Source: Gammaproteobacteria bacterium (GTDB lineage Bacteria; Pseudomonadota; Gammaproteobacteria; SZUA-152). From it: a DNA stretch of 64,000 nucleotides. Position numbers and translations under genes: made by a program. Positions 8,637-60,484 of the stretch are shown piece after piece. Numbering within the stretch: position 1 is the stretch's first letter; the number at the start of each line of letters is the position of its first letter. Under the pieces are notes generated by a model that saw nothing but the letters and a program-made list of their open reading frames with translations, was not told the DNA's origin and did no database searches. The stretch spans positions 6,450 to 70,449 of the forward strand of contig JAOUJW010000015.1 in the NCBI GenBank assembly GCA_029882975.1, in the 5' to 3' direction.

Positions 8637-8783
8637 TCAACAACTCCAACAATTTCAAAGGGTTCGCCGGCCTCATTCCGAGCCCGGAATCAAACCGTTT
8701 TATTCAGTGATTAACATTTAATTATACACTGAATTAATTGTTGGATGGGGAGGTTTTTTGCCCTTGCTGATGGACCTTAACGC

Positions 8784-46289: not shown

Positions 46290-47780
46290 ATGAGTGATGA
46301 CAACAACATTTATGCGGCCATTGATCTGGGCTCTAACAGTTTTCACATGATCGTTGCCCGTTACCAGGACGGGCAACTGCACATCGTGGATCGTCTTAGG
46401 GAAATGGTCAGATTGTCGGCAGGCATGGACGACAGCAGGAACATTACAGTCGAAGCCCAACAGCGGGCACTGAATTGTCTGTCTAAATTCGGACAAAGAA
46501 TCAAAGACCTGAACCAGGATAGCGTACGCATAGTTGGAACCAACACACTGCGCAGTGCCCGCAATGCGAAAGACTTTATTGCACAGGCAGAACAGGTATT
46601 AGGGACATCCATCGATATAATCTCCGGCATGGAAGAGGCTCGTCTGATTTATTTGGGTGTGGCACACAATACCGGAGAAAACGAAAAACAGCGCCTGGTT
46701 ATCGATATTGGAGGTGGCAGCACCGAGTTAATCATTGGTAAAGGCGCTGAAGCCATCACCATGGAAAGCCTGTATATGGGCTGCGTCAGTTTCACCCAGC
46801 GGTTTTTCCAGAATGGGTTAATCAACACCGAGGCACAAAAACATGCCAAAATCGCTGCCCGGGTGGAACTGATTCCAATCATGAACAAATATCGTCAAAT
46901 GGGTTGGGATGTGGCCATCGGTACATCGGGAACAGTGCGAGCAGTCCATAGTGTTGCCATGGCAGAAGGTTGGGTTAAAGAGGGTATTACGCAACAGGCC
47001 TTAAAAAAAATTCAACAACACCTGCTTCAAGCCGGACACAGTGATAATATCAAGTTAAAAGGATTGAGCGATGAACGCAAACCCGTTTTCGCCGGAGGCG
47101 TCGCTGTATTGTGCGGTATTTTTCAAGCTTTGGAATTGAAAAAAATCCAAGTTTCCGACGGTGCCCTACGTGAGGGCTTGTTGCATCATATGGTAGGCAG
47201 TCAGCATGAGGATGTACGCATGCAAAGCATAAATCATCTGGCACGGCGATTTTTGGTGGATCCGGCACAGGCAGAAAGGGTACAGGAAACCGCTCTGGTG
47301 TGCCTGCACCAATTGAGTCCGGCCTGGAACCTACCCTATGCTGCCAATAAAAACTGGCTACGATGGGCGGCACAACTGCATGAACTGGGATTGGGAGTAG
47401 CTCACAGTCATTATCACAAACACGGCGCCTATATTGTGGAAAATGCCGATGTAGCCGGATTCACTCAGCAGGAACAAGGTTTGTTGGCACTGCTGGTGAG
47501 ATGTCACCGCCGTAAAATAAACCACCCGGACTTTAAAACGTTACCCAAAAACTGGGCTGGACGTTTGCAAAAACTGGCCATCATACTGCGCCTCAGTGTC
47601 TTGCTGCACCGTAGTCGAAGCGAAGAACCATTGCCGCTATTTGAAATTACTGCTGACGAGTCGCGCTTGCAGTTAAAATTCCCCGCCGGCTGGTTAAAAC
47701 AACACCAACTCACCAAGGCCGATTTGGGACAAGAAGCGCAATACCTGCGCACTGTGAATATCGCTTTAAGCGTCAAGTAA
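46290..47780 (+). CDS. ppx: Exopolyphosphatase (Ppx/GppA family)
   Basis: 496 aa. N-terminal AAIDLGSNSFHMIV actin-like ATPase fold. Confidence 0.9.
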   Translation: MSDDNNIYAAIDLGSNSFHMIVARYQDGQLHIVDRLREMVRLSAGMDDSRNITVEAQQRALNCLSKFGQRIKDLNQDSVRIVGTNTLRSARNAKDFIAQAEQVLGTSIDIISGMEEARLIYLGVAHNTGENEKQRLVIDIGGGSTELIIGKGAEAITMESLYMGCVSFTQRFFQNGLINTEAQKHAKIAARVELIPIMNKYRQMGWDVAIGTSGTVRAVHSVAMAEGWVKEGITQQALKKIQQHLLQAGHSDNIKLKGLSDERKPVFAGGVAVLCGIFQALELKKIQVSDGALREGLLHHMVGSQHEDVRMQSINHLARRFLVDPAQAERVQETALVCLHQLSPAWNLPYAANKNWLRWAAQLHELGLGVAHSHYHKHGAYIVENADVAGFTQQEQGLLALLVRCHRRKINHPDFKTLPKNWAGRLQKLAIILRLSVLLHRSRSEEPLPLFEITADESRLQLKFPAGWLKQHQLTKADLGQEAQYLRTVNIALSVK

Positions 47781-47785
47781 AAATT

Positions 47786-49924
47786 TTAGTACTGCGTCAC
47801 TGCTTGTATCAACTCAGCCTGCGCCGACAACCCGGTTTTCTCCTCAACCTTGGCTTTGCCATTGCGCTTTTTCTTCCTCACGACCGCATCCTTGTCCTTT
47901 TCCACACGAACATAGGTTCCGTCCTTTTGCAGTGACCAGGTATTACAATTGTCACTCAGATACAAATTCAGATCACCGATAACACGCTCTTTTAGTTGTT
48001 TGGTGTCGATTGGGAAACACACTTCCACACGTTGAAACATATTTCTGTCCATCCAATCCGCACTGGCACAATACACCTTAGGGTCACCATTGTTCTCAAA
48101 ATAGTATACCCGTGTATGTTCCAGAAAACGCCCCACCACGGAACGCACTTGAATATTGTCCGACACCCCCGGCAAGCCGGGCCTTAAACAACACAATCCT
48201 CGCACCAGCAATATCACTTCCACACCAATAGACGATGCCTTGTACAGCGCCCGAATCAACCTTGGCTCAGTTAAGGAGTTCACCTTAATGATAATGCGCC
48301 CGGGTAAACCCTGTTCAATAAAGCTTATCTCTTGTTCGATTAAGTCGAGCAAGGACTGATGCAAAGAAAAAGGTGCTTGTAGAATTTTTTGCATACTGGG
48401 AACTTTACCCAAACTGGTGAGTTGCAAAAATACACTGTGTACATCCTTACCCAGTTTATTATTGCTACTGAGCAGGCTGTAATCCGTGTACAACCGAGCG
48501 GTACTGGAATGGTAATTACCGGTTCCTAAATGCACATATTGCTTTAACTGCTTGCCTTGGCGCCGCACGATGTGCAACATTTTTGCATGGGTCTTGTAAC
48601 CCACAACACCGTACACCACGTGCACGCCGGCCTCCTGCAAACGGTTAGCCAGGCCAATATTGGCTTCTTCATCAAAGCGCGCTCGCAACTCCACCACGAC
48701 AGTCACTTCCTTCCCGGCCCTGGCGGCAGCCACCAACGCCTCAACAAACACCGATTCAGCACCGGACCGATACAAGGTTTGTTTGATACTTAACACATCC
48801 GCATCTACTGCGGCGTGCTTAAGCAAATCCACCACCGGAGCAAAGGACTCATAAGGGTGATGCAGCAAGATATCCTGCGCATCCAACACGGTAAACATGT
48901 CCACACCGCCGACTAACGGTTTCGGCAGGTGGGGTGTGAACGGTGGATACGTGAGTGCTGAGTTATCAATAATATCGATTATGGCTGTAACCCGGTTCAA
49001 ATTCACCGGCCCATTGACCAAATACAACTCCCTGGCGGTGATACCAAAACGCTCCAGCAGGAAACTCACGGTCTCATCCGGACATTGATCATCCACTTCC
49101 AATCGTACAGCATCGCCATAACGTCGGGACGCCAGCTCCCCTTGCACCGCTCGGAGCAAATCATCCACCGCCTCTTCGTCAACAAACAAATCACTGTTGC
49201 GGGTGACTCGAAACTGATAACAGCCTTTGATTTTCATACCGGGAAACAATTCTTCAACGAAGGCATGTATCACCGAGGATAAAAACACAAAATCATGCGG
49301 CCCACACTCCACATCGCCTTGTGGTAATTGAATAACCCGGGGCAAAGCCCGAGGCGCTTGTACAATCGCATGGGAGCGATGCCGACCAAATGCGTCCTTG
49401 CCCCGCAAGGAAATTATGAAATTAAGACTTTTATTGAGGATTCGGGGAAATGGATGAGCCGGGTCCAAACCCAGAGGCGTTATGATGGGTAACAATTGTT
49501 CATGAAATACCTGATGCAACCACTGTTCCTGTGAGGAATTCCAATCAGAACGACGAATAAAACGAATATTGTGTTGTTCAAGTAGAGGAAAAATCGTGTC
49601 GTTCAAAACCGTGTATTGTTCATCTACAAACTGGTGTAGACGAGTACTGATAGCACTCAACACTTCCAGGGGTAACATTTCGTCTGGTCCGGCCTGAATT
49701 GAACACAATTCCGCCATTTGCAGCAAACCCGCCACCCTGACCTCGAAGAACTCATCCAGGTTGGTACTGGAAATACTCAAAAAGCGCAGACGTTCCAATA
49801 CCGGCACGGAATCATCCTTAGCCTGCTCAAGAACGCGCTGGTTAAATTCTATAAAACTCAGTTCGCGATTAATGTAAAGATTGGCGGAGTTCAAATCCGC
49901 ATGATCAAGACTAACTTCATTCAT
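47786..49924 (-). CDS. ppk: Polyphosphate kinase 1
   Basis: 712 aa. N-terminal NRELSFIEFNQRVLEQA. PLD-like HxK motifs (YKTHAKM). Confidence 0.95.
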   Translation of the reverse strand: MNEVSLDHADLNSANLYINRELSFIEFNQRVLEQAKDDSVPVLERLRFLSISSTNLDEFFEVRVAGLLQMAELCSIQAGPDEMLPLEVLSAISTRLHQFVDEQYTVLNDTIFPLLEQHNIRFIRRSDWNSSQEQWLHQVFHEQLLPIITPLGLDPAHPFPRILNKSLNFIISLRGKDAFGRHRSHAIVQAPRALPRVIQLPQGDVECGPHDFVFLSSVIHAFVEELFPGMKIKGCYQFRVTRNSDLFVDEEAVDDLLRAVQGELASRRYGDAVRLEVDDQCPDETVSFLLERFGITARELYLVNGPVNLNRVTAIIDIIDNSALTYPPFTPHLPKPLVGGVDMFTVLDAQDILLHHPYESFAPVVDLLKHAAVDADVLSIKQTLYRSGAESVFVEALVAAARAGKEVTVVVELRARFDEEANIGLANRLQEAGVHVVYGVVGYKTHAKMLHIVRRQGKQLKQYVHLGTGNYHSSTARLYTDYSLLSSNNKLGKDVHSVFLQLTSLGKVPSMQKILQAPFSLHQSLLDLIEQEISFIEQGLPGRIIIKVNSLTEPRLIRALYKASSIGVEVILLVRGLCCLRPGLPGVSDNIQVRSVVGRFLEHTRVYYFENNGDPKVYCASADWMDRNMFQRVEVCFPIDTKQLKERVIGDLNLYLSDNCNTWSLQKDGTYVRVEKDKDAVVRKKKRNGKAKVEEKTGLSAQAELIQAVTQY

Positions 49925-49974
49925 AACCTTAGTTTAGCAAAGCATAGCTGGCCTGGCTTTTGCTACGCTATAAA

Positions 49975-51220
49975 TATGGATCAACTAATTAGTTTGGGGA
50001 TTGCCTTGGCTCTGGGCCTGCTGGTGGGGCTGGAACGCGGCTGGCAGGAACGTGAGGCCGCCGAAGGCAGCCGCATTGCCGGCATTAGAACATTTGGTTT
50101 AATCGGATTATTGGGTGGTTTGTGGGCCTTACTGGCCGGCAACTCCCAATATTCGGATATTACTCTAGGGTTTGCCTTTGTAGGCCTGGCAATTATTCTT
50201 ATCGTAGCCCACACCGTCGATCGGGGCTCACAACGCAACTACGGTGTCACCACGATTATCGCCGCGCTCATCACTTTTGTACTGGGCATTCTCACGGTAT
50301 TGGGAGAAAAAAATGTTGCTGTTGCAGCGGCTGTGGCCACCACGGTTTTACTAAGTCTAAAACCCGTGCTACACCAATGGATTCAAAAAATCGAAATCCT
50401 GGAACTGACCGCCGCCCTAAAGCTGTTATTAATATCCGTGGTATTGCTTCCGGTATTACCGGACAAAGGCTTTGGTCCCTGGGAAGCACTAAACCCATAT
50501 GAGATCTGGTGGATGGTGGTACTCATTGCCAGTATCTCCTTCATCAGCTACGTCAGCATGAAACTGTTTGGCGCTCATCACGGTCTCTTGCTCACAGGCT
50601 TTCTGGGAGGAATCGCTTCTTCCACCGCAGTTACTTTGAATTACTCCCATATGGCTCGCACCCTTAACATTCACCGGGTTTTAGCGGCGGGGATACTCAT
50701 TGCCTCTGCCACCATGTTTCCCCGGGTGTTATTGGAAATCGCGGTTATCAACCATGAAATGATCCCCTTAACGGCAACACCTTTGCTGGCCATGACCACT
50801 GTCAATGTTTTGGGTGCGTTTTGGTTATGGCGCCATCAGCCGGATACCTTGAGCCCACAAGAGCTGGCTCGATCCAAACCCTTTGAACTACTCCCGGCAC
50901 TGCGCTTCGGTTTACTGTTGGTCATCATTATGTTGCTGGCTCAGGCTTTTAAGCACTGGCTGGGTGATACGGGGATTTATGTACTCGCCGCTTTCTCCGG
51001 AATAGCTGATGTCGATGCCATCACACTCTCTTTGGCCCGTATGGCACGCAATGGCCTGGCTGATGAGATCGCGGCCAATGCCATTATCATCGCCACTATT
51101 GTTAACAGCGCAGTAAAAACCGCGCTGGTGTATTTCATTGGCGGCATGCCTCTATTCCGTTACGTAATTTGGGTATTTCTATTGATATTGGCAGTTGGCA
51201 CCGGACTGGCCGTAATGTAG
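49975..51220 (+). CDS. MgtC/SapB-family membrane protein with a DUF4010-type C-terminal domain
   Basis: About 414 aa. MDQLISLGIALALGLLVGLERGWQ... The GLERE/G motif is typical of MgtC N-termini. Many TM helices. The track ORF begins at 49718, but that extension overlaps the ppk start, so the start was set to ATG 49975. Confidence 0.7.
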
Positions 51221-51484
51221 GCCACACGACTGCAGTAATCCTTAAACCCATCACTATTGTTTCAAAATGTTCATATTTGAACATGGCGAAACAACTCACA
51301 CATATTCCTACACAGCCACAACTCCCGCAGCCTTGTTTCAATACTCTACAAGCGTAGTTTCATAATTCTGTGAACTTGGGATGACAAGCATTAACTAAAA
51401 TCAGAGCCATATGAAATAGTGTCTTTTGAATTCATTCAGCTCAAAAACAATCAAAAGGCGACATTTAACCGGAGAACACTAATC

Positions 51485-51610
51485 ATGAAAAAAATATTAC
51501 TTGCTTTGCCATTATCCTTCGCGTTCATCGGTGTTGCCGTGGCAGCGCAAACAGACTTTTACAAACAAAATATTGAACTGGATGGCATCTGGGGTGATAC
51601 GGATTGTTAA
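51485..51610 (+). CDS. Small secreted peptide precursor, paralog 1 (41 aa: MKKILLALPLSFAFIGVAVAAQTDFYKQNIELDGIWGDTDC)
   Basis: GGAGA RBS 10 nt upstream. Sec-type signal peptide with AxA cleavage site (VAA|Q). Mature peptide of about 20 aa ending in Cys. Near-identical paralog at 52982. Hairpin plus T-run follows. Confidence 0.55.
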   Translation: MKKILLALPLSFAFIGVAVAAQTDFYKQNIELDGIWGDTDC

Positions 51611-51620
51611 TGGTTATAGG

Positions 51621-51647
51621 AGGCCGACGACGTCGCCCCCCCATTTT
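51621..51647 (+). terminator. Weak GC hairpin plus T-run after peptide gene 1; could act bidirectionally (convergent with the 51666 gene)
   Basis: GGCCGACGACGTCGCC followed by CCCCCATTTTT. Confidence 0.3.
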
Positions 51648-51665
51648 TGTATTCACTTAAGACAA

Positions 51666-52037
51666 CTAAAACCAATCGTGTATAGTCGCACTGCGTTCGT
51701 ATAAAAACTCGCCATCACTGGCGGCCACGCAGATTTTGATGAATATCTTGTCTTCACCGACCGCTTCATCCAATATCTCACAAGGCATAGCAAAACTACG
51801 TTTCACCGGCATCACCGCATCCCGTTCCACAACATGAGTATCGTACGGCGGTGAACCCAGGGGTTTATCGCGGAGCAAATCATCACCAAATAAAATCACG
51901 CAAACGGAAAATGAAACGCCGGCCTGATATTTTTCCTTGTCGATACGCAATGCATAGGAATAATCGATGCTGCAAATATGACCGGAAACAAAAGACGTTC
52001 GGGTAATGCTGAAATCAACCGAATCCACTGATATCAT
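51666..52037 (-). CDS. Hypothetical cytoplasmic 123-aa protein
   Basis: ORF without signal peptide or recognisable motif. Convergent with peptide gene 1. In the same orientation as the lipoprotein gene upstream of it. Confidence 0.45.
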   Translation of the reverse strand: MISVDSVDFSITRTSFVSGHICSIDYSYALRIDKEKYQAGVSFSVCVILFGDDLLRDKPLGSPPYDTHVVERDAVMPVKRSFAMPCEILDEAVGEDKIFIKICVAASDGEFLYERSATIHDWF

Positions 52038-52093
52038 AATGGGCCTTTATGTTGATACCGCTTCTTACATGCATGCCTTATACAAGCATAAAT

Positions 52094-52109
52094 AAACCCA
52101 AGTGGGTTT
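52094..52109 (-). terminator. Palindrome AAACCCAagTGGGTTT downstream of the lipoprotein gene
   Basis: 7-bp perfect inverted repeat followed by an A/T-rich stretch on the minus strand. Confidence 0.35.
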
Positions 52110-52214
52110 GCCACATTGCAACCAAATTTAATTGATTTATCTCAAAATAAAAGTCACTTTGGAGTGTGGGCACCAATCCGTACCCACTGGAATCATTTCC
52201 ACATGAACCTGGAC

Positions 52215-52757
52215 TCAGCGTTCGCCCAGGCGACTGTCCAGCTCAGGGCGCCGCAGCCATCGGGCTACATCTTTGCCCAGAGCTTTAACCGTCCGGCCTA
52301 ACACGGAGCAGGAACCCTTGAACCCGGCGAAGGCGCCACCGCCGGAAGAACGAGCAGCGACAAAGGAACCGATTTTTTTACCGTTTTCATACAATTCACC
52401 GGAAATTTCCGTAAATTTATTGTGGTGTCCGCCGCCAAAACCGCCCCATGCATGCCCCTGGCTCAGGGCGTCAGTGATACGAACCTTCAAAACCTTACCA
52501 GGATCATTACTGGATACCGAAGCTTTTTGCACAAAATTGATGCGGTATTTTTTCCCAAATATCACCAAAAACTCAGACAGTTTTTCCGGCAGGCGGCACT
52601 CCTGTTTGATATTACCCGCAATTTTATTGTTATCTGCATACGGGATTAAGGCATCGATACTGACAGAATCCATGGGACCGGAAGGCGTTTCTTCCTCCGG
52701 CATGGTTTGGCAGGCGACGAGCGATAAACCCATGAGTAAAACCATTAATTTCTTCAT
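52215..52757 (-). CDS. Predicted lipoprotein, 180 aa, function unknown
   Basis: Signal peptide with lipobox (LSLVAC). Gly-rich segments (GHAWGGFGGGHH; SSGGGAFAGFKG). Confidence 0.6.
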   Translation of the reverse strand: MKKLMVLLMGLSLVACQTMPEEETPSGPMDSVSIDALIPYADNNKIAGNIKQECRLPEKLSEFLVIFGKKYRINFVQKASVSSNDPGKVLKVRITDALSQGHAWGGFGGGHHNKFTEISGELYENGKKIGSFVAARSSGGGAFAGFKGSCSVLGRTVKALGKDVARWLRRPELDSRLGER

Positions 52758-52845
52758 TCTCCATCCCTTCCATCGTTAAATTGATAGTTTGTCCGCCTCA
52801 CAATTCATACCAGCTTGGGCGACACTTGCTCATTTTTTTAGAATT

Positions 52846-52861
52846 CTGTGAACTGCGTCAC
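52846..52861. promoter_or_regulatory. Perfect CRP-consensus-like palindrome TGTGA-N6-TCACA about 120 bp upstream of peptide gene 2
   Basis: TGTGAactgcgTCACA seen in the sequence. It overlaps the duplicated AATTCTGTGAACT motif. Confidence 0.3.
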
Positions 52862-52981
52862 AAACCACGGTTGAACGGTATCAAATAAATGTCAATTTGT
52901 ACGTAACAAACAATGCTCGCTTGAACACTGCGGCAAAACAATAATCCGAAACGACGCGACATCTATAGGAGTACTCCAAGT

Positions 52982-53110
52982 ATGAAAAAAATTGCACTCG
53001 CTCTACTGTTGACCTTTGCTTTCACCGGTTTAGCAATGGCGGCTGATGATAGTTTTTATACCCAGCAAAACATCGAACTGGATGGCAATTGGGGGGACTC
53101 CGACTGCTAA
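52982..53110 (+). CDS. Small secreted peptide precursor, paralog 2 (42 aa: MKKIALALLLTFAFTGLAMAADDSFYTQQNIELDGNWGDSDC)
   Basis: AGGAG RBS. Signal peptide (AMA|AD). Conserved C-terminal FY.Q.NIELDG.WGD.DC shared with paralog 1. Followed by a strong rho-independent terminator. Below the 60-aa cutoff of the ORF track; found by eye. Confidence 0.55.
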   Translation: MKKIALALLLTFAFTGLAMAADDSFYTQQNIELDGNWGDSDC

Positions 53111-53156
53111 GCCAAACCGCCTCTTGTCGAATGACCGGAGGACATGCGAATTACGA

Positions 53157-53186
53157 CGGGAGTCCATGGCGGCTCCCGTTTTTTTT
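53157..53186 (+). terminator. Rho-independent terminator after peptide gene 2 (CGGGAG-loop-CTCCCG then T8)
   Basis: Seen in the sequence: acgacgggagtccatggcggctcccgtttttttt. Confidence 0.5.
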
Positions 53187-53419
53187 GCCCGAATAGAACT
53201 ATTTCACACCATTTCGCGGTTATTTAATATCCCCCAAAGTTCTTATCCCCAACATCCTACCAAGCTTTACCAGGCGGCGCAAAATAGCTCTGGTGGTCAT
53301 GGTTTTTGGTAGGATTCTTGTATGCAATATGTGTGTCATCTGTATTTTTTTTACATTCTATGACCTATAATTCTTCAACAATTGGTTATTTTTAACTCTT
53401 TAATGGACGTATATAGGGA

Positions 53420-54331
53420 ATGGCCAAAGCACATTTACTTCAGCAACTAAGAGAGGAAATTCGTCTTCGTCACCTCAATGTGAAGACCGAAAACGCCTAC
53501 ATCAGCTGGATCAAACGATTTATTCTGTTTCACGATAGAAAACACCCCAGGGATTTGGGCCGAAATGAAATACGTGCGTTCATCTCCCACATAACTCAAG
53601 AGAAAAAGGCACCGCCTGACTCTCACAATCAGGCATTGGCCGCTTTGGTGTTTCTCTACAAACATGTCGTCCCATTTAGACACATTCAAACTGAACCGGT
53701 TCACGAAACCAAGCCGCCAACTGTTTTTTCGCACGAAGAGGCAATGGCTGTATTGGAGAAACTCCACGGTGCGTTTTGGCTGATTGCTTATTTGATGTAC
53801 GGATCAGGCTTGCGTGTACAGGAATGTCTATCACTGCGCGTCAAAGACCTGAATTTTGACACTCGCCAAATTAAAGTCAGAGGCCATGGCTCCTGCAAAG
53901 AACGCGTGGCAGTATTCCCCTCCATACTCAGCGAACCTTTGCACTTGCAGTTGTACGCGGTAAAAACCTGGTTTGATCGAGACATGAAAGCCGGTCGCTA
54001 TAAAAACGACCCCCGGTGCGCCAATGATCCGTATTGGGAGGAACAGTACGAATGGCAGGATCAATACGTATTCCCCAGCTTTACCCCTGTTTCCGAAGAA
54101 ATCGATAGCTTTATTCTACGCAGCCACATAGATGCACAACGGTTACAGCGTATTGTAAAACAAGCGATTCAGGACGCCGGCATAAGTAGAAACGCCAGCA
54201 TCCACACATTCCGACATTCCTTTGCTTGTGAAATGCTTAAAAGAGGTAATGATATGCGTTTCCTGCAACGAATTTTAGGCCACAATCGTATCTCTACGAC
54301 TATGATCTATTCCCGAGTGGAAAGCATTTAA
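53420..54331 (+). CDS. intI: Integron-integrase-like tyrosine recombinase (IntI family)
   Basis: 303 aa. Strong resemblance to IntI1 along the whole length. N-terminal ..[21 protein letters not shown]... matches IntI1 [47 protein letters not shown] matches [65 protein letters not shown] matches [39 protein letters not shown], including the catalytic Y. It also has the extra segment between patches II and III that is characteristic of IntI. Confidence 0.75.
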   Translation: [303 protein letters not shown]

Positions 54332-54377
54332 TTCTTGAAACACTTTATTGCGTTTTTTTTGCAGCAGCGACACCCAT

Positions 54378-54397
54378 CTGAGCGGTAACCCGCTCAG
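54378..54397. terminator. Bidirectional terminator hairpin CTGAGCGG-taac-CCGCTCAG between the convergent intI and arsC genes (overlaps the arsC stop)
   Basis: 8-bp perfect stem, preceded by a T8 run. Confidence 0.45.
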
Positions 54398-54813
54398 ATC
54401 ACTGACTCCAGGGAAATCACGAATTCACGAATCTGATCCCGCACCAGACGATAACAGTCCAGGGCCGCTTGGGCATCGGCTGCCGCTTGGGCTAGTTTGG
54501 GTGGATCATCAAAACCCACATGAATTTTCTTCACGGGCGGGTCCACACGTGGGCAGGTTTCATCGGCATGTGCACACACGGTAAAAATCACATCAAACTG
54601 CACGTGCGACAATTCAGTCAATGTTTTGGAATAGTGCCCCGACATATCCACACCGACTTCCTGCATGACGGCCACCGCGTTGGGGTTCATACCGTGAGTC
54701 TCTATTCCTGCCGAATAGAAGTGATAGTCACTATCTTTGTAGTAATGCCGGGCCCAAGCCTCAGCCATTTGGCTACGACAAGAATTACCCGTACATAGAA
54801 ACAGCAGATTCAT
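54394..54813 (-). CDS. arsC: Thioredoxin-coupled arsenate reductase ArsC (LMW-PTP fold)
   Basis: 139 aa. LCTGNSCRSQMAE P-loop. Two downstream Cys (VCAHADETCP), matching B. subtilis/S. aureus-type ArsC. Confidence 0.7.
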   Translation of the reverse strand: MNLLFLCTGNSCRSQMAEAWARHYYKDSDYHFYSAGIETHGMNPNAVAVMQEVGVDMSGHYSKTLTELSHVQFDVIFTVCAHADETCPRVDPPVKKIHVGFDDPPKLAQAAADAQAALDCYRLVRDQIREFVISLESVI

Positions 54814-54850
54814 CAGTCAAGAACCCATTAGCTAAACGGCCGGCTATGCC

Positions 54851-55567
54851 CTAGTCCCCCTTGGCCTCTTCTTCCATCTTTTCAAAGCTGGTATGGCGCA
54901 CATCTTTACCTTTAACCAGATAAATAATGTATTCACAGATATTTCTGGCGTGATCCCCAATACGTTCCAAAGCTCTGGCAGACCACATCACATCCAAAGT
55001 TCTTTTTACATTGCGTGGATCTTCCATCATATGAGTGATCATTTGGCGCATAATGCCATCATATTCACGATCCACTTTGAGATCTTCTTTGGCCACATTG
55101 ACCGCATCTTCAGCATCCATCCGTGCAAAAGCATCCAAGGCCGCATGCAGAATATTACGCACTTGATCTCCCAAATGCTGTAGTTCACTGTACTGATTCT
55201 TGGGCCGCTCCATTTCGGAAAGATGAATAGCCATGCGAGCTACGCGTTCGGCTTGATCACCTATACGCTCAAGGTCAGTAATGGTTTTTATCACGGCGAT
55301 GACCAGACGCAAGTCGAATGCCGTTGGCTGACGTCGTGCCAGTATTTGAGTACATTCTTCGTCAATGGCCACTTCCAATGCATTAACTTGGTAGTCATGG
55401 GTAATTACGGATTCGGCCAGCTCCACATCGTTGTTGGCCAAGGCTGTAATCGCATGATTAATTTGCTCCTCCACCAAACCACCCATGGCCAGAACTTTAT
55501 TCCTGACATCTTCCAACTCTTCGTTGAATTGTCTGGAAATGTGATGGCGAATTCTATTGTTTTCCAT
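54851..55567 (-). CDS. phoU: Phosphate signalling complex protein PhoU
   Basis: Start set at MENNRIRHHISRQFNEELE (aligns with the E. coli PhoU N-terminus). The track ORF extends to 55585. Confidence 0.9.
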   Translation of the reverse strand: MENNRIRHHISRQFNEELEDVRNKVLAMGGLVEEQINHAITALANNDVELAESVITHDYQVNALEVAIDEECTQILARRQPTAFDLRLVIAVIKTITDLERIGDQAERVARMAIHLSEMERPKNQYSELQHLGDQVRNILHAALDAFARMDAEDAVNVAKEDLKVDREYDGIMRQMITHMMEDPRNVKRTLDVMWSARALERIGDHARNICEYIIYLVKGKDVRHTSFEKMEEEAKGD

Positions 55568-55615
55568 GCTTAACCTCGGTTTCAATTATGTTCGAAAAAA
55601 CCACCCCAGCCCTAA

Positions 55616-56452
55616 TTAACCATAACGCCCGGTAATATAATCTTCCGTTTGCTTTTTGGATGGATTGGTAAACAACGCATTGGTATCCCCGAATTCGATT
55701 AACTCGCCCATGTACATAAATGCGGTATAGTCGGATACCCTGGCGGCCTGTTGCATGTTGTGGGTAACAATGACAATAGTATACTTGTTTTTCAGCTCAT
55801 AGATCAGTTCTTCAATTTTCAGCGTGGAAATGGGGTCCAGTGCTGATGCCGGCTCATCCAGCAATAAAACTTCCGGTTCGATGGCGATGGCCCGGGCGAT
55901 CACCAGGCGTTGTTGTTGCCCCCCCGACAGCCCCAAAGCGTTGTCGTTCAAGCGATCTTTCACTTCATCCCAAAGAGCCGCACCCTTGATAGCTTTTTCC
56001 ACCACTTCATCCAAAGTACGACGATCATTAACCCCTTGAATGCGCAAACCGTAAGCAACGTTCTCATAGATGGATTTGGGAAAAGGATTGGGTTTTTGAA
56101 ATACCATTCCTACCCGTCGACGCAGGTCCGCCACATCCACCGATTTTTGGAAAATATTGTTGCCATCCAGGAGTATTTCGCCCTCTATACGAACCCCATC
56201 CACCAAATCATTCATCCGATTGATGCTGCGCAGTAAGGTGCTTTTGCCGCAACCGCTGGGACCGATATAAGCGGTCACTCGTTGCTTGGGTATGACCATA
56301 CTGACACCGTGCAAAGCCTGTTTTTCCCCGTAGAAAAGATTCAGGTCCTTCACCTCGATGATCTTTTCCTCGTCTTCCGGGTTTTTTCGCACACTACCAC
56401 GTGTCAGAGCGCTCATATCGATGGCATGTGTTTTAGTTTCCTGGTTCATCAT
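55616..56452 (-). CDS. pstB: Phosphate ABC transporter ATP-binding protein PstB
   Basis: 278 aa. Walker [10 protein letters not shown]. Signature LSGGQQQR. C-terminus ..[12 protein letters not shown] identical to E. coli PstB. Confidence 0.95.
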
Positions 56453-56534
56453 TCAACTCTTCGGTGGATCACTTTGTCATTAAGTTGTTAGCTTTCAAGA
56501 ACTTCAGCGCATATACTTGAGCCCATAAGCGCTT

Positions 56535-58205
56535 TCAGCCCTCTAAAGCCCGATACTTTTCCCGCAATTGATTTCGTACCGCAACTGCGGCCATATTCAG
56601 AACCACAATAACGACTACCAGCAGCAATGCCGTAGCATACACCAATGGTCTGGCTGCCTCTACGTTAGGGCTCTGAAAACCCACGTCGTATATATGGAAA
56701 CCCAAATGCATAAACTTACGATCCAAGTGCAAAAACGGCGCATTAGCGTCCAGAGCCAATGATGGTGCCAGCTTGACGACGCCCACCAACATCAAGGGTG
56801 CTACCTCGCCGGCGGCGCGGGCCACAGCCAGGATTAAACCGGTCATCATTGCCGGGCTGGCCATCGGTAATACCGTGCGCCACAAGGTTTCTGCTTTTGT
56901 TGCTCCTAATGCCAGACTGCCCTCGCGAATGGATTTGGGAATGCGTGACAGCCCTTCCTCCGTCGCAACAATCACTACGGGTAGAGTCAGCAAGGCTAAT
57001 GTCAGGGAGGCCCACATAATTCCCGGTGTACCGAAAGTGGGCGCCGGCAAGGCTTCCGGGAAAAACAGCCGATCCAAATTGCCACCGAGAAAGTATACGA
57101 AAAAACCCAATCCAAACACGCCGTATACAATGGAAGGAACGCCGGCGAGGTTGTTAACAGCAATCCGAATCAGACGCGTTAAAAATCCCTGAGTGGCATA
57201 TTCCCGCAAATACACCGCAGCGATTACACCAAAAGGGGTAACGATGATAGACATAATGATGACCATTAATACAGTGCCAAATATCGCCGGGAAAATGCCC
57301 CCTTCGGTATTGGCTTCTCGGGGATCATCGGTTAGAAACTCCCACACCTTGTGTATATAAAAACCAATTTTCGAGAGCACAGACATTTCATTGGCTTTAT
57401 AAACATTCACCACTTTGGCCAGGGGAATGTCCACGGCTTGGCCGCTCGCAGTTTCCATGGTAATGCTATCTCGATTGATATCGCTATACAGTTTGTTAAG
57501 AGCCTTCTGCAGGTGGCCATATTCCGCTTCAGCCTGCTGTTTTTCCTGCGCTAATTCCTGCTGATTTTGCGTGTTCCAATCCCCCTGCAGTTCCAGCTTT
57601 TTTTGACGCAGACGCAGACGTTCCAACTGATAGTTGATGGTACCAATATCGTCTTTTTCGATTTTTCGAATTTGGGAGTGTAGCTCGGCGGCTCGATCCA
57701 GTTGCTGCTCCAGTTCCGCCCACAGCGCCTCTTTCGCATCAATGACTTTACCATCCGCTTTAACAGATTTCAGATAGCCGTAAAAATTTCCCCATTCGTA
57801 ACGCTCTACAGTGACCAACGCTTCCGGTGTGGATTGTTTATCAATATTGGGAACCAACAACCATTGAAAATCCAAACCCAGAACATCTCGATTACCGGTT
57901 TTGACCAACAACCGCTGTACACGTTGGGCGCTTGCATCCAACCGGCCTTCAGCCAGGGTGATACCCGCATCCTGCAATCGTCTTAACGGAACCGTCTCCT
58001 CGTCGGTAACCTCACCAATAATCCGGACCTGTTGGTTGTTTTTGTCCACATAGGAAAATTCAGTCACATCGGCAGGCCAAAAATGCCCCAGACCTCTGAT
58101 GGCAATCAACAGCAACAGGCCGCACACCAACACTATGCTGGTACTGACCGCTGCCGCGTTCAACCATACCCAAGGCGCTCCACTTTTTATCCAACGATTC
58201 ATCAT
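56535..58205 (-). CDS. pstA: Phosphate ABC transporter permease PstA (long form)
   Basis: 556 aa. Long N-terminal periplasmic extension as in Pseudomonas. C-terminal permease core. Confidence 0.9.
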   Translation of the reverse strand: MMNRWIKSGAPWVWLNAAAVSTSIVLVCGLLLLIAIRGLGHFWPADVTEFSYVDKNNQQVRIIGEVTDEETVPLRRLQDAGITLAEGRLDASAQRVQRLLVKTGNRDVLGLDFQWLLVPNIDKQSTPEALVTVERYEWGNFYGYLKSVKADGKVIDAKEALWAELEQQLDRAAELHSQIRKIEKDDIGTINYQLERLRLRQKKLELQGDWNTQNQQELAQEKQQAEAEYGHLQKALNKLYSDINRDSITMETASGQAVDIPLAKVVNVYKANEMSVLSKIGFYIHKVWEFLTDDPREANTEGGIFPAIFGTVLMVIIMSIIVTPFGVIAAVYLREYATQGFLTRLIRIAVNNLAGVPSIVYGVFGLGFFVYFLGGNLDRLFFPEALPAPTFGTPGIMWASLTLALLTLPVVIVATEEGLSRIPKSIREGSLALGATKAETLWRTVLPMASPAMMTGLILAVARAAGEVAPLMLVGVVKLAPSLALDANAPFLHLDRKFMHLGFHIYDVGFQSPNVEAARPLVYATALLLVVVIVVLNMAAVAVRNQLREKYRALEG

Positions 58206-60484
58206 AGCGAACTGTATTTCTCCCGCAAACGCTGCCGTACCAACTCAGCGACGGTATTGAAAATGAATGTGAACATAAATAAAACCAGGGCCGCCAGAAA
58301 CAACACTCGGTAGTGGGTACTATCCACTTCCGATTCCGGCATTTCCACGGCGATATTAGCCGAAAGGGTTCGCATCCCTTGAAAAATACTCAAATCCATA
58401 ACAGGCGTGTTTCCTGTTGCCATCAACACAATCATGGTTTCCCCTACAGCCCTTCCGAAACCGATCATGACCGCAGAGAAAATACCGGGACTTGCTGTTA
58501 ACAGTACCACCCGCACCATGGTCTGCCATGGTGTGGCACCCAGAGCCAAAGAACCATAGGTCAAGTGTTTAGGCACACTGAAAATCGCATCTTCGGCAAT
58601 GGAAAAAATGGTCGGAATCACGGCAAAGCCCATAGCAATACCAACCACCAATGAGTTGCGTTGATCAAAATCAATCCCGGCATCTTTCAGCCATACGCGC
58701 ATATCACCGCTGAAAAGCAAATTCTCTATGGGCTGACTCATGGCGAAACTCAACCATCCCACGACGATAATCACGGGAATCAATAACGCCGCGTCCCAAC
58801 CCTCAGGAATGGCATGACGATACTTTTCCGGCACGTGCTGCCAAGAATAAGCAAACGCCAGAATAGCCATGGGCATGACCAACAATAACGTAAATATACC
58901 CGACAAATGCGTCTCCACCAGCGGTGCCAACCACAAACCGGCGAGAAACCCCAATATGACTGTTGGTAAAGCCTCCATAATTTCAATACCAGGCTTCACC
59001 ATACGACGCATACGCGGCGCCATAAAGTACGCGGTATAAATCGCCCCCATAATTGCCAGTGGAATGGCGATGAGCATGGCGTAAAACGCAGCTTTTAAGG
59101 TGCCAAAAACCAAGGGTGTTAAACTAAACTTGGGCTCAAAATCATTGCTGGCAGAGGAAGATTGCCAAATGTATTGTTCTTCGGGGTAGTTTTCATACCA
59201 GACTTTACCCCATAAAGAGGACCAGGACACTTCCGGGTGCTCATTAACCAGTGCAAAAAAATTCAGCTTCTCACTACCCTCTTCACCGCCTTCAACCAGC
59301 AGGGCGTTTGCCCTGGGCGCCAAAGATACGGCCCGCGGCTTAGACGTCACCGGCTCCAACAACAAAACCCGCTCTGCCGTAGAATGATAAACCCCCAAGT
59401 AGCCGTTTTCATCCAAAACAACAAATCCTTTGCGACTGTATTCCGACACCACACTATGGACAGCGGCTTCCCTCTCGTGAAAGCTGCGAAACTTGCGTAG
59501 CTCCGGTTTATTACTCGCATTACGAACGGGGGACCATTGGCTTATGTAACCCGCCGAATCACCGGCTAATAGAGAAATGTCTCCGGTTAAAAATTCCAAG
59601 CGGGTTAAAAGCTGTCCTTTACCTAAAATATTGGTGTGTTGCAATAAAGTCGGAAATTCCTTATCGCTAATATCATAAGCACTGAGCTCGCCTTTGGCGT
59701 TAGCCAAATAGACAGTACGCTGCTCTTTGTCCAATAAAAGAAACTCGATGTTTTCCACCTTCAACTCAATCACTGCCTGAGTTTTAGTGGAATCCGATTC
59801 CTCTGCTTCGAATAAATTTTCTTCTTTGGCAAAGCTGGTAATAATCAATCGGTCGTCCACGGTGAGAGCCACGATGGTGGAAGACTCTTCACCCAGTTTG
59901 ACAGCAATTTGGCTTATCTCACGCTCCTGCTCATCCACCAGCAAGGGATCCGGCCCCAAAGGAAATATCAATTCCGGGTCGATACGACGGACATTATTGG
60001 GATAACTGACCTTGTACTTATGCTGAGCCACGATGACATGACCGGAGGAAGTACCGTATGCAACCGTCCCCTTTGTAGGATCTCCCTGAGTGAAACTGGT
60101 CAACACGGCGTCTTTGGGCGTCTCAATACGATCCGTTCTGATACTCGAACCTTTGCGGGCATCGAAAAAGATGGCGTAACCCTGATTGGTAAATCGTACT
60201 CCAATTTCATTTTGCTCTTCCATGGCCAGCAGCACACTGGCACCTTTGTCTCCACCCGGCACGCTGTATTCAGCTTCTTTTTGCAGAGATGCCGGTAAAA
60301 ACAAAGGGAAAACAACATAGAGCAAATAGAAAAAAATCAGAACAATAGCGATGATGACGCTTATACCACCGATACCGACACTGTAGCGGGCGATAATATC
60401 TTTGATATAGCGCCAGCGTCTTAGCTTCTCAGCTCGACCCAATTGCAGGCTGCTGGAATGACTCGTAGGGGAATCACTATTCAT
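58202..60484 (-). CDS. pstC: Phosphate ABC transporter permease PstC (long form)
   Basis: 760 aa. Large N-terminal domain plus C-terminal permease. Overlaps pstA by 4 bp. Confidence 0.9.
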   Translation of the reverse strand: MNSDSPTSHSSSLQLGRAEKLRRWRYIKDIIARYSVGIGGISVIIAIVLIFFYLLYVVFPLFLPASLQKEAEYSVPGGDKGASVLLAMEEQNEIGVRFTNQGYAIFFDARKGSSIRTDRIETPKDAVLTSFTQGDPTKGTVAYGTSSGHVIVAQHKYKVSYPNNVRRIDPELIFPLGPDPLLVDEQEREISQIAVKLGEESSTIVALTVDDRLIITSFAKEENLFEAEESDSTKTQAVIELKVENIEFLLLDKEQRTVYLANAKGELSAYDISDKEFPTLLQHTNILGKGQLLTRLEFLTGDISLLAGDSAGYISQWSPVRNASNKPELRKFRSFHEREAAVHSVVSEYSRKGFVVLDENGYLGVYHSTAERVLLLEPVTSKPRAVSLAPRANALLVEGGEEGSEKLNFFALVNEHPEVSWSSLWGKVWYENYPEEQYIWQSSSASNDFEPKFSLTPLVFGTLKAAFYAMLIAIPLAIMGAIYTAYFMAPRMRRMVKPGIEIMEALPTVILGFLAGLWLAPLVETHLSGIFTLLLVMPMAILAFAYSWQHVPEKYRHAIPEGWDAALLIPVIIVVGWLSFAMSQPIENLLFSGDMRVWLKDAGIDFDQRNSLVVGIAMGFAVIPTIFSIAEDAIFSVPKHLTYGSLALGATPWQTMVRVVLLTASPGIFSAVMIGFGRAVGETMIVLMATGNTPVMDLSIFQGMRTLSANIAVEMPESEVDSTHYRVLFLAALVLFMFTFIFNTVAELVRQRLREKYSSL

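Follow-up and report, generated by a model that had tools for sequence, protein, structure and literature searches.

The locus described here raises the question of whether an integron integrase gene that stands without recognizable cassettes marks an empty integron or a protein that has taken up another task. It lies in a 64,000-nucleotide stretch (the window) of contig JAOUJW010000015.1, assembly GCA_029882975.1, from a gammaproteobacterium of the GTDB group SZUA-152, and centers on a gene at 53420–54331 that encodes a tyrosine recombinase of 303 amino acids (aa) resembling the integron integrase IntI. A first-pass annotation of the DNA, made from the letters alone, had listed a cassette-less In0-like element, a decayed chromosomal integron, an IntI-family recombinase doing something else, and atypical cassettes among the adjacent genes as options. 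We favor the third option, namely that an IntI-derived recombinase has probably been retained to do something other than recombine cassettes in the canonical way, since residues characteristic of IntI have been lost and the gene is nevertheless conserved in place under selection. What sets the protein apart is a combination: a fixed position, strong purifying selection, and replacement of the residues that handle attC with the nucleophile set kept.

The recombinase is a member of the IntI family. It matches the catalytic domain PF00589 (98 bits) and the SAM-like N-terminal domain PF13495 (85 bits), and it passes the TIGR02249 model "integron integrase" marginally, with 272.2 bits against a cutoff of 265. 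On the same model its three orthologues score 277–303 bits, the sister sequence P0264 378 bits and a typical IntI 488 bits. The alignment with VchIntIA (PDB 2A3V) spans residues 6–300 of the recombinase (E 1.4e-49). The additional domain specific to IntI, about 36 aa near patch III, aligns without a large gap to VchIntIA at about 190–240, and the QYVFPS motif of this segment is retained. Both the TIGR02249 match and the 2A3V alignment agree with the first-pass annotation, which had described the protein as IntI-like over its full length with the IntI-specific segment included. An identical protein is deposited at NCBI under the name "MAG: integron integrase [Gammaproteobacteria bacterium]", where MAG stands for metagenome-assembled genome.

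Close homologues of this protein are few. Among 5.8 billion protein clusters only three were found, at 72–75% identity, and the next-nearest matches are ordinary IntIs at 37–45%. These three (P0002–P0004, encoded at loci L001–L003) and the window protein make up a clade of four sequences, all from metagenome assemblies. When 1.84 billion cluster representatives were searched by profile, the score fell from 664 bits in the clade to 322 bits at the next match, P0264. A scan of genome contigs with the clade alignment found no match, a scan of viral sequences likewise gave none, and the sole match in metagenomes was a recombinase of 26% identity, so that no member could be added to the four. In a neighbor-joining tree of 53 sequences (numpy distances, 100 bootstraps), the four members form a clade with 100% bootstrap support and a long stem, which is nested among the IntIs and far from XerC/D, with P0264 as its sister (95% bootstrap). 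The tree thus places the protein inside IntI; a position outside it, such as that of a XerC/D paralogue, is what the first-pass annotation had named as refuting its view.

The residues of the clade were compared in an alignment with about 120 and about 150 other IntIs, VchIntIA and an IntI1 reference that is 100% identical to the real IntI1; columns called lost are those conserved at 85–100% in these approximately 120–150 other IntIs. R132, H262-x-x-R265, H288 and Y297 are kept in the clade, as are E121, F233 and G302 (IntI1 numbering). Of the IntI1 hexad R146-K171-H277-R280-H303-Y312, five residues (R, H, R, H and Y) are present, apart from a Tyr at the H277 position of P0004, and K171 is replaced. 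The catalytic motifs that the first-pass annotation had recognized stand for these five, but not for the sixth, which is off its canonical position. K171 (VchIntIA K160), the β-hairpin lysine of the motif GKGxKDR, is G/G/D/G in the four members, where the motif reads GHGSCKER or GSDSCKER; a second hairpin lysine, the K160 found within CKER, is conserved in the clade. The other altered columns are P213 (P/D/D/D in the clade), L216 (A), K219 (VchIntIA K209; P/P/P/A), W229 (VchIntIA W219; D), P242 (VchIntIA P232; E/S/K/K), H250 (VchIntIA H240; S/R/T/S), T285 (C/C/K/S) and T296 (F). In addition, YTHV has become YSRV/L, the ALER motif (ALER215) has become (C/S)AND, and the C-terminal G..V.SP.D motif is missing. 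In related tyrosine recombinases the conserved C-terminal tail packs onto the neighboring subunit.

Many of these positions belong to the apparatus for recognizing attC. Among the markers of the additional domain and of attC contact (ALER215, K219, W229, F233, P242, H250/H251), only F233, Y220 and H251 are retained. In the VchIntIA numbering of Larouche & Roy 2011 (PMC3053210), P232, H240 and H241 hold the extrahelical base T12'', and Q145, W157, K209, Y210 and W219 hold G20''; four of these eight contacts are replaced in the clade. The losses also include the "always conserved" IntI markers of a study of 182 Shewanella IntIs, those of In0s included, in which K171, K219 and W229 are conserved in all (PMC9229058). 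The net charge of the αI2 segment is −3 to −6 in the clade versus +0.9 ± 1.8 in 150 other IntIs, and the acidic segment is invariant within the clade. P0264, the nearest relative outside the clade, keeps K171 but has P213D, W229N and H250D; it may represent a halfway stage on the way to losing the attC-binding pocket. We propose that the clade protein probably still cleaves or binds DNA as a tyrosine recombinase, and that its substrate would be something other than the canonical attC hairpin.

No attC site was detected at the locus by any of three methods, a motif heuristic, a constrained hairpin scan and a covariance model, each run with positive controls. The controls were a Methylomagnum contig (L085), a Tenderia contig (L086) and class-1 plasmids (L090–L093); three of five contigs with ordinary IntIs (L087, L088 and L089) end near intI with no cassette side and were not usable. 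The motif heuristic, which combines RYYYAAC...GTTRRRY with the L-box, picked up 14 attC sites in the array of Methylomagnum ishizawai and 2 in Tenderia, and it found zero in the 3.1-kb module around the recombinase or in L001–L003. When relaxed it gave 4 matches versus 2.9 expected from shuffles. By itself this heuristic missed several class-1 attC sites, and the other two methods were added. The hairpin scan folds with DNA parameters and forces AAC...GTT to pair; it recovered the class-1 attC sites of aadA2, lnuF, ereA2, arr-3 and aac(6')-Ib at −0.20 to −0.32 kcal/nt. Its best hairpin within 51100–54500 reached −7.2 kcal (−0.078/nt), weaker than the shuffle mean best of −9.7, and in the whole window there were only four scattered borderline hairpins with no cluster. 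The home-built covariance model, made from 14 attC sites of three origins with R and L helices 82% paired with covariation, scores real attC sites at 31–75 bits, including nine L085 sites outside its training set. It returned nothing at E ≤ 10 in the window, L001–L003 or the related locus L100, and with filters off its best score was 4.6 bits within 47000–58500 and 8.4 bits in the orthologous loci. An Rfam scan gave nothing above noise.

The first-pass annotation had found no convincing attC by eye, and this agrees with all three methods: bona fide sites were found neither in the module nor in the window or the orthologous loci. The isolated core-like strings that it had listed do exist, GTTAAAT at about 52781 and GTTGAAC at 52870–52876. 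A strict match to the motif heuristic at 8689–8746 (ATCCAAC...GTTTGAT, 58 nt), isolated and the only one in the window, is not detected by the covariance model, and about two such matches are expected by chance in 64 kb. IntegronFinder defines an In0 as an intI without attC within 4 kb (PMC4889954), and the locus is an In0 in this sense, as the "cassette-less In0-like" option had it. In0 elements are common, accounting for 51 of 215 intI genes in complete genomes (PMC4889954) and for 63 of 121 Shewanella integrons (PMC9229058).

The gene is under purifying selection. Synonymous sites are saturated between the four loci for every gene, including phoU with its 95% aa identity, and the conclusion is accordingly qualitative, with no ratio of nonsynonymous to synonymous divergence (dN/dS) given. 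The dN of the recombinase is 0.15–0.18, compared with 0.09–0.14 for MgtC, 0.10–0.16 for the neighboring 123-aa protein p123, 0.24 for arsC and 0.35 for the lipoprotein p180. Since dS is saturated at such a dN, the recombinase must have been constrained. Its open reading frame (ORF) is intact in all four clade loci. The idea of a decayed chromosomal integron is not supported: the reading frame has stayed whole in four lineages despite their divergence, and dN is much lower than the saturated dS.

The features of the locus are as follows, and the identities of the flanking ppk, MgtC-like, arsC, phoU and pst genes are those given by the first-pass annotation.

47786–49924, minus strand: ppk
49976–51220, plus strand: MgtC/DUF4010
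51485–51610, plus strand: pepA, 41-aa secreted peptide
51666–52037, minus strand: p123, 123-aa protein
52215–52757, minus strand: p180, 180-aa lipoprotein
52847–52862: CRP-type palindrome TGTGA-N6-TCACA
52982–53110, plus strand: pepB, 42-aa secreted peptide, with a terminator at 53155–53180
53300–53419: conserved non-coding block directly upstream of intI
53420–54331, plus strand: IntI-family tyrosine recombinase, 303 aa
54394–54813, minus strand: arsC-type low-molecular-weight phosphatase (LMWPc), convergent with intI
from 54851, minus strand: phoU-pstB-pstA-pstC

A conserved stretch of non-coding DNA lies directly upstream of the recombinase. In an alignment of the window with L001, L002 and L003, about 90 bp before the start codon (approximately 53330–53419) are nearly invariant, although the synonymous sites of the same four loci are saturated. 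The block contains TATAAT at 53366–53371 and CTTCAAC-N5-GTTATTT at 53373–53391; the spacer is N4 in the relatives, which gives the consensus CTTCAAC-N4/5-GTTRTTT. Since this site lies downstream of the only TATAAT, an insertion there would part intI from its putative promoter. attI sequences are class-specific. There is no second copy of the block in the window, and hence nothing nearby with which it could recombine to invert or delete DNA. No LexA box was found within 53200–53420, where a CTGT-N9-ACAT string is not conserved in the relatives. No consensus sigma-70 promoter was called upstream of intI, the promoter scan being at chance level. The block is a candidate promoter/operator or recombinase binding site.

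Comparison with relatives bears on whether the genes at the cassette position are cassettes. The gene order is MgtC, p123 (−), p190 (−), IntI (+), PhoU (−) in L001; p180 (−), a 42-aa peptide (+), IntI (+), arsC (−) in L002; IntI, arsC, PhoU in L003; and p180, p123, MgtC in L100. The order and orientation of p180 and p123 are conserved in L001, L002 and L100, and variable cassette content was not seen among these related genomes. The suggestion of atypical cassettes is refuted by this synteny, and homologues of the two genes also occur elsewhere without an integron (see below). No integron is run at this locus: there is no attC, and the genes at the "cassette position" are conserved core genes. 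A PhoU-anchored scan covered 80 loci from related species, every one an uncultured gammaproteobacterium (identity 80% at best). It found no homologues of IntI, p180, p123 or the peptides and gave no clean "empty site"; in L027 phoU adjoins MgtC, but in a different orientation.

Nor is the 3.1 kb one inserted unit, a possibility that had been raised together with a pair of flanking inverted repeats. The segment around pepA and the arsC gene vary separately, arsC being present in L002 and L003 and not in L001. The inverted repeat does exist, with arms at 51258–51267 (TGTTTCAAAA) and 54333–54342 (TGTTTCAAGA, minus strand), but it is no more than chance would give (8 such matches occur in the window and 9.9 are expected), and its left arm sits in the lineage-specific 445-bp pepA segment. 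A hairpin at 51257–51294 with 17-bp arms (TTGTTTCAAAATGTTCA / TGAACATGGCGAAACAA, 82% complementary) and no T-run follows directly after the MgtC stop codon and contains this left arm.

The neighbors themselves have histories apart from integrons. The 338 homologues of p180 are widespread uncharacterized lipoproteins of Xanthomonadales, Nitrospirales and others, whose genes have ordinary chromosomal surroundings without a recombinase. The family is nearly without Pfam annotation, one member carrying PF21827, and it has the invariant motifs EC, H..K and G(A/S)F..FKGSC.VLGRT.KALG.D...WL. The predicted model of p180 (predicted local distance difference test, pLDDT, 87) resembles LptE, PelC and "minor lipoprotein" folds (matches to PDB 5tse, LptE and PelC at E 1e-6 to 1e-3). 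The p123 family has 23 proteins, 22 of which are exactly 123 aa long, and is all-beta with a beta-sandwich. Nothing in the structure searches tied p180 or p123 to DNA transactions. On the contig L099, p123 (2069–2440) belongs to a series of genes, phoU-TfoX-p123-ParA-CHAD-PPK2-PPK1-Ppx, from which both IntI and p180 are missing, and this indicates that p123 is an old resident of the Pho/polyphosphate neighborhood. It recurs beside phoU/ppk in distant relatives, and this recurrence may point to an unrecognized link to phosphate or polyphosphate metabolism. L099 is CDLCYU010000379.1 of assembly GCA_975852575.1, labelled Kaarinaea lacus (Nostocales cyanobacterium). Its genes are of proteobacterial type (ppk 69% and p123 57% identical to those of the window), and because of the ppk identity it is probably a contaminant contig from a heterotroph in the labelled assembly.

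The two secreted peptides, pepA and pepB, consist of a signal peptide and a mature part of about 20 aa with the pattern ...F(Y/T)xQNIE(L/M)DGxWGxxDC, and pepB ends in Cys. They have no Pfam or NCBIfam match. The 3' 45 nt of the two genes are 78% identical, and the genes lie exactly 1500 bp apart, bracketing p123-p180. L002 has one copy (810–938) and L001 none. pepA lies inside the 445-bp segment that neither L001 nor L100 has (their gaps there are 92 bp and 28 bp, respectively), and it is thus a lineage-specific duplication; pepB is not a cassette. The divergent p180/pepB promoter region holds the only perfect TGTGA-N6-TCACA of the window (0.11 expected), and this CRP-type palindrome is conserved in L002 at about 680–700. 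A weaker copy of the AATTCTGTGAAC motif that surrounds the palindrome precedes pepA (51364–51376). Further along, PstA (556 aa) and PstC (760 aa), encoded at 56535–60484 on the minus strand, are unusually long forms in which the permease domain is preceded by large N-terminal extensions. GC skew is monotonic across the window, which is therefore not at the terminus.

The main rival explanation is that the locus is a canonical In0, with an active integrase and an empty attI, awaiting cassettes or serving attC arrays elsewhere in the genome. That the protein passes TIGR02249 and keeps R, HxxR, H and Y would suit such an element, as would the frequency of In0s (PMC4889954, PMC9229058). However, an active integrase of this kind would have to work without K171, K219 and W229, conserved in all 182 Shewanella IntIs (PMC9229058) and all lost here, and without P242, H250, ALER and the C-terminal tail. 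In addition, no attC is present in 64 kb, no LexA box lies upstream, and the site is empty in four lineages with saturated dS, which we judge unexpected for an active capture platform. We therefore consider a canonical In0 possible but unlikely. The same lost residues and C-terminal tail, together with the long stem branch and the marginal TIGR02249 score, might instead be taken as signs of a decaying relic, a former chromosomal integron now bare of cassettes with an integrase gene on its way to becoming a pseudogene. Such drift is hard to reconcile with ORFs that are unbroken and co-linear across four independent assemblies, with a dN as constrained as that of neighboring core genes at saturated dS, with a replaced αI2 segment that is itself invariant in the clade, and with conserved upstream DNA; decay is largely refuted and, in our judgement, quite improbable.

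Two further explanations concern what the genes are rather than what became of them. The layout recalls a small ordinary integron, with p180 and p123 as cassettes whose attC sites would be atypical or have escaped detection: both genes lie 5' of intI and read away from it, the arrangement of classical integrons. Such an integron is very improbable given that three methods found no attC, that the same two genes occur in the same order in relatives, that p180 homologues reside in unrelated chromosomal contexts, and that p123 stands beside phoU/ppk without IntI in L099. Moreover, pepB on the plus strand, with its own terminator, intervenes between intI and p180, and L001 has just 92 bp of AT-rich DNA after p123. 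A paralogue of the XerC/XerD type misnamed as integron integrase would likewise be a chromosomal single gene inherited vertically, and the XerA, XerC and XerD models do give secondary matches to the recombinase. These matches reach 115–145 bits against cutoffs of 220–335, the IntI-specific insertion is present and alignable, and the tree puts the clade within the IntIs. A Xer paralogue is an extremely remote prospect, and this explanation is effectively refuted at the present level of analysis.

The reading that we favor, an IntI exapted for another role, runs as follows. In an uncultured lineage of Gammaproteobacteria, vertical inheritance has kept a lone gene of this small, long-branched IntI clade at the same chromosomal position, which lies between phoU (or phoU-arsC) and a lipoprotein gene. 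The best candidate for its cognate site is the near-invariant block of about 90 bp that covers the promoter and 5' region of the gene itself; there the protein might autoregulate or recombine. A fuller version holds that this is a domesticated integron integrase in which cassette recombination has been abandoned and the attC pocket, β-hairpin and C-terminal tail have been remodelled, and which purifying selection has since maintained as a host gene with a new target or regulatory role, perhaps at the upstream block; this we offer tentatively, as a possibility that may well prove wrong. A limited search of the literature found no description of an exapted IntI.

Several observations weigh against a changed role. 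K160 could stand in for K171, and the enzyme might then be fully active; the loss of K171 is also not unique, as about 11% of IntI-like representatives have no lysine in this column. The orthologue P0004 has Tyr for the His of HxxR (the H277 position). The clade is small, with its four members all metagenome-assembled, and the tree is by neighbor joining only. The attC search covered 64 kb, and any clusters of attC sites lacking an integrase (CALINs) elsewhere in the genome could be acted on in trans. The sensitivity of the covariance model is below 100%, as it missed three expected attC sites in L090 (arr, aac(3)-IIg and ntf2). Finally, the upstream block could be simply the promoter/operator of another regulator.

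Compared with IntI proper (VchIntIA, IntI1), the clade protein has full-length homology, the SAM-like and catalytic domains, the IntI-only segment at the same position and R/HxxR/H/Y in common. It differs in being without K171, ALER, K219, W229, P242, H250, T285, T296, the H of YTHV and the C-terminal tail, in its acidic αI2, in a locus without attC or LexA box, and in a score of 272 versus about 490 bits typical. With In0 elements (Cury et al. 2016, PMC4889954; Shewanella, PMC9229058) it shares an intI with no attC within 4 kb. Shewanella In0s, however, keep K171, K219 and W229 (PMC9229058), whereas the clade enzyme is divergent, and the window gene is fixed at one site across lineages of saturated dS with core genes flanking it. 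XerC and XerD belong to the same superfamily; their genes are host genes passed on vertically in single copy, and they act on one fixed chromosomal site, as the clade protein may. Xer proteins are without the IntI insertion, the phylogeny sets the clade apart from them, and no dif-like site was identified at the locus. Another parallel is the orphan chromosomal intI of Nitrosomonas europaea, which has no adjacent cassette array and was reportedly found active on attC by Leon and Roy in 2003. Like that gene, the clade gene is chromosomal with no adjoining cassettes; the clade has lost canonical residues.

In0s are usually regarded as empty working integrons or as annotation noise. If the locus is a normal In0 the finding is ordinary. 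If an IntI has indeed been exapted here, IntI-family proteins would be recruitable to other tasks, and surveys that count every TIGR02249 or IntegronFinder match as an integron would overestimate the number of active platforms. The clade would then also offer a natural variant for separating the residues that recognize folded attC from those of general catalysis.

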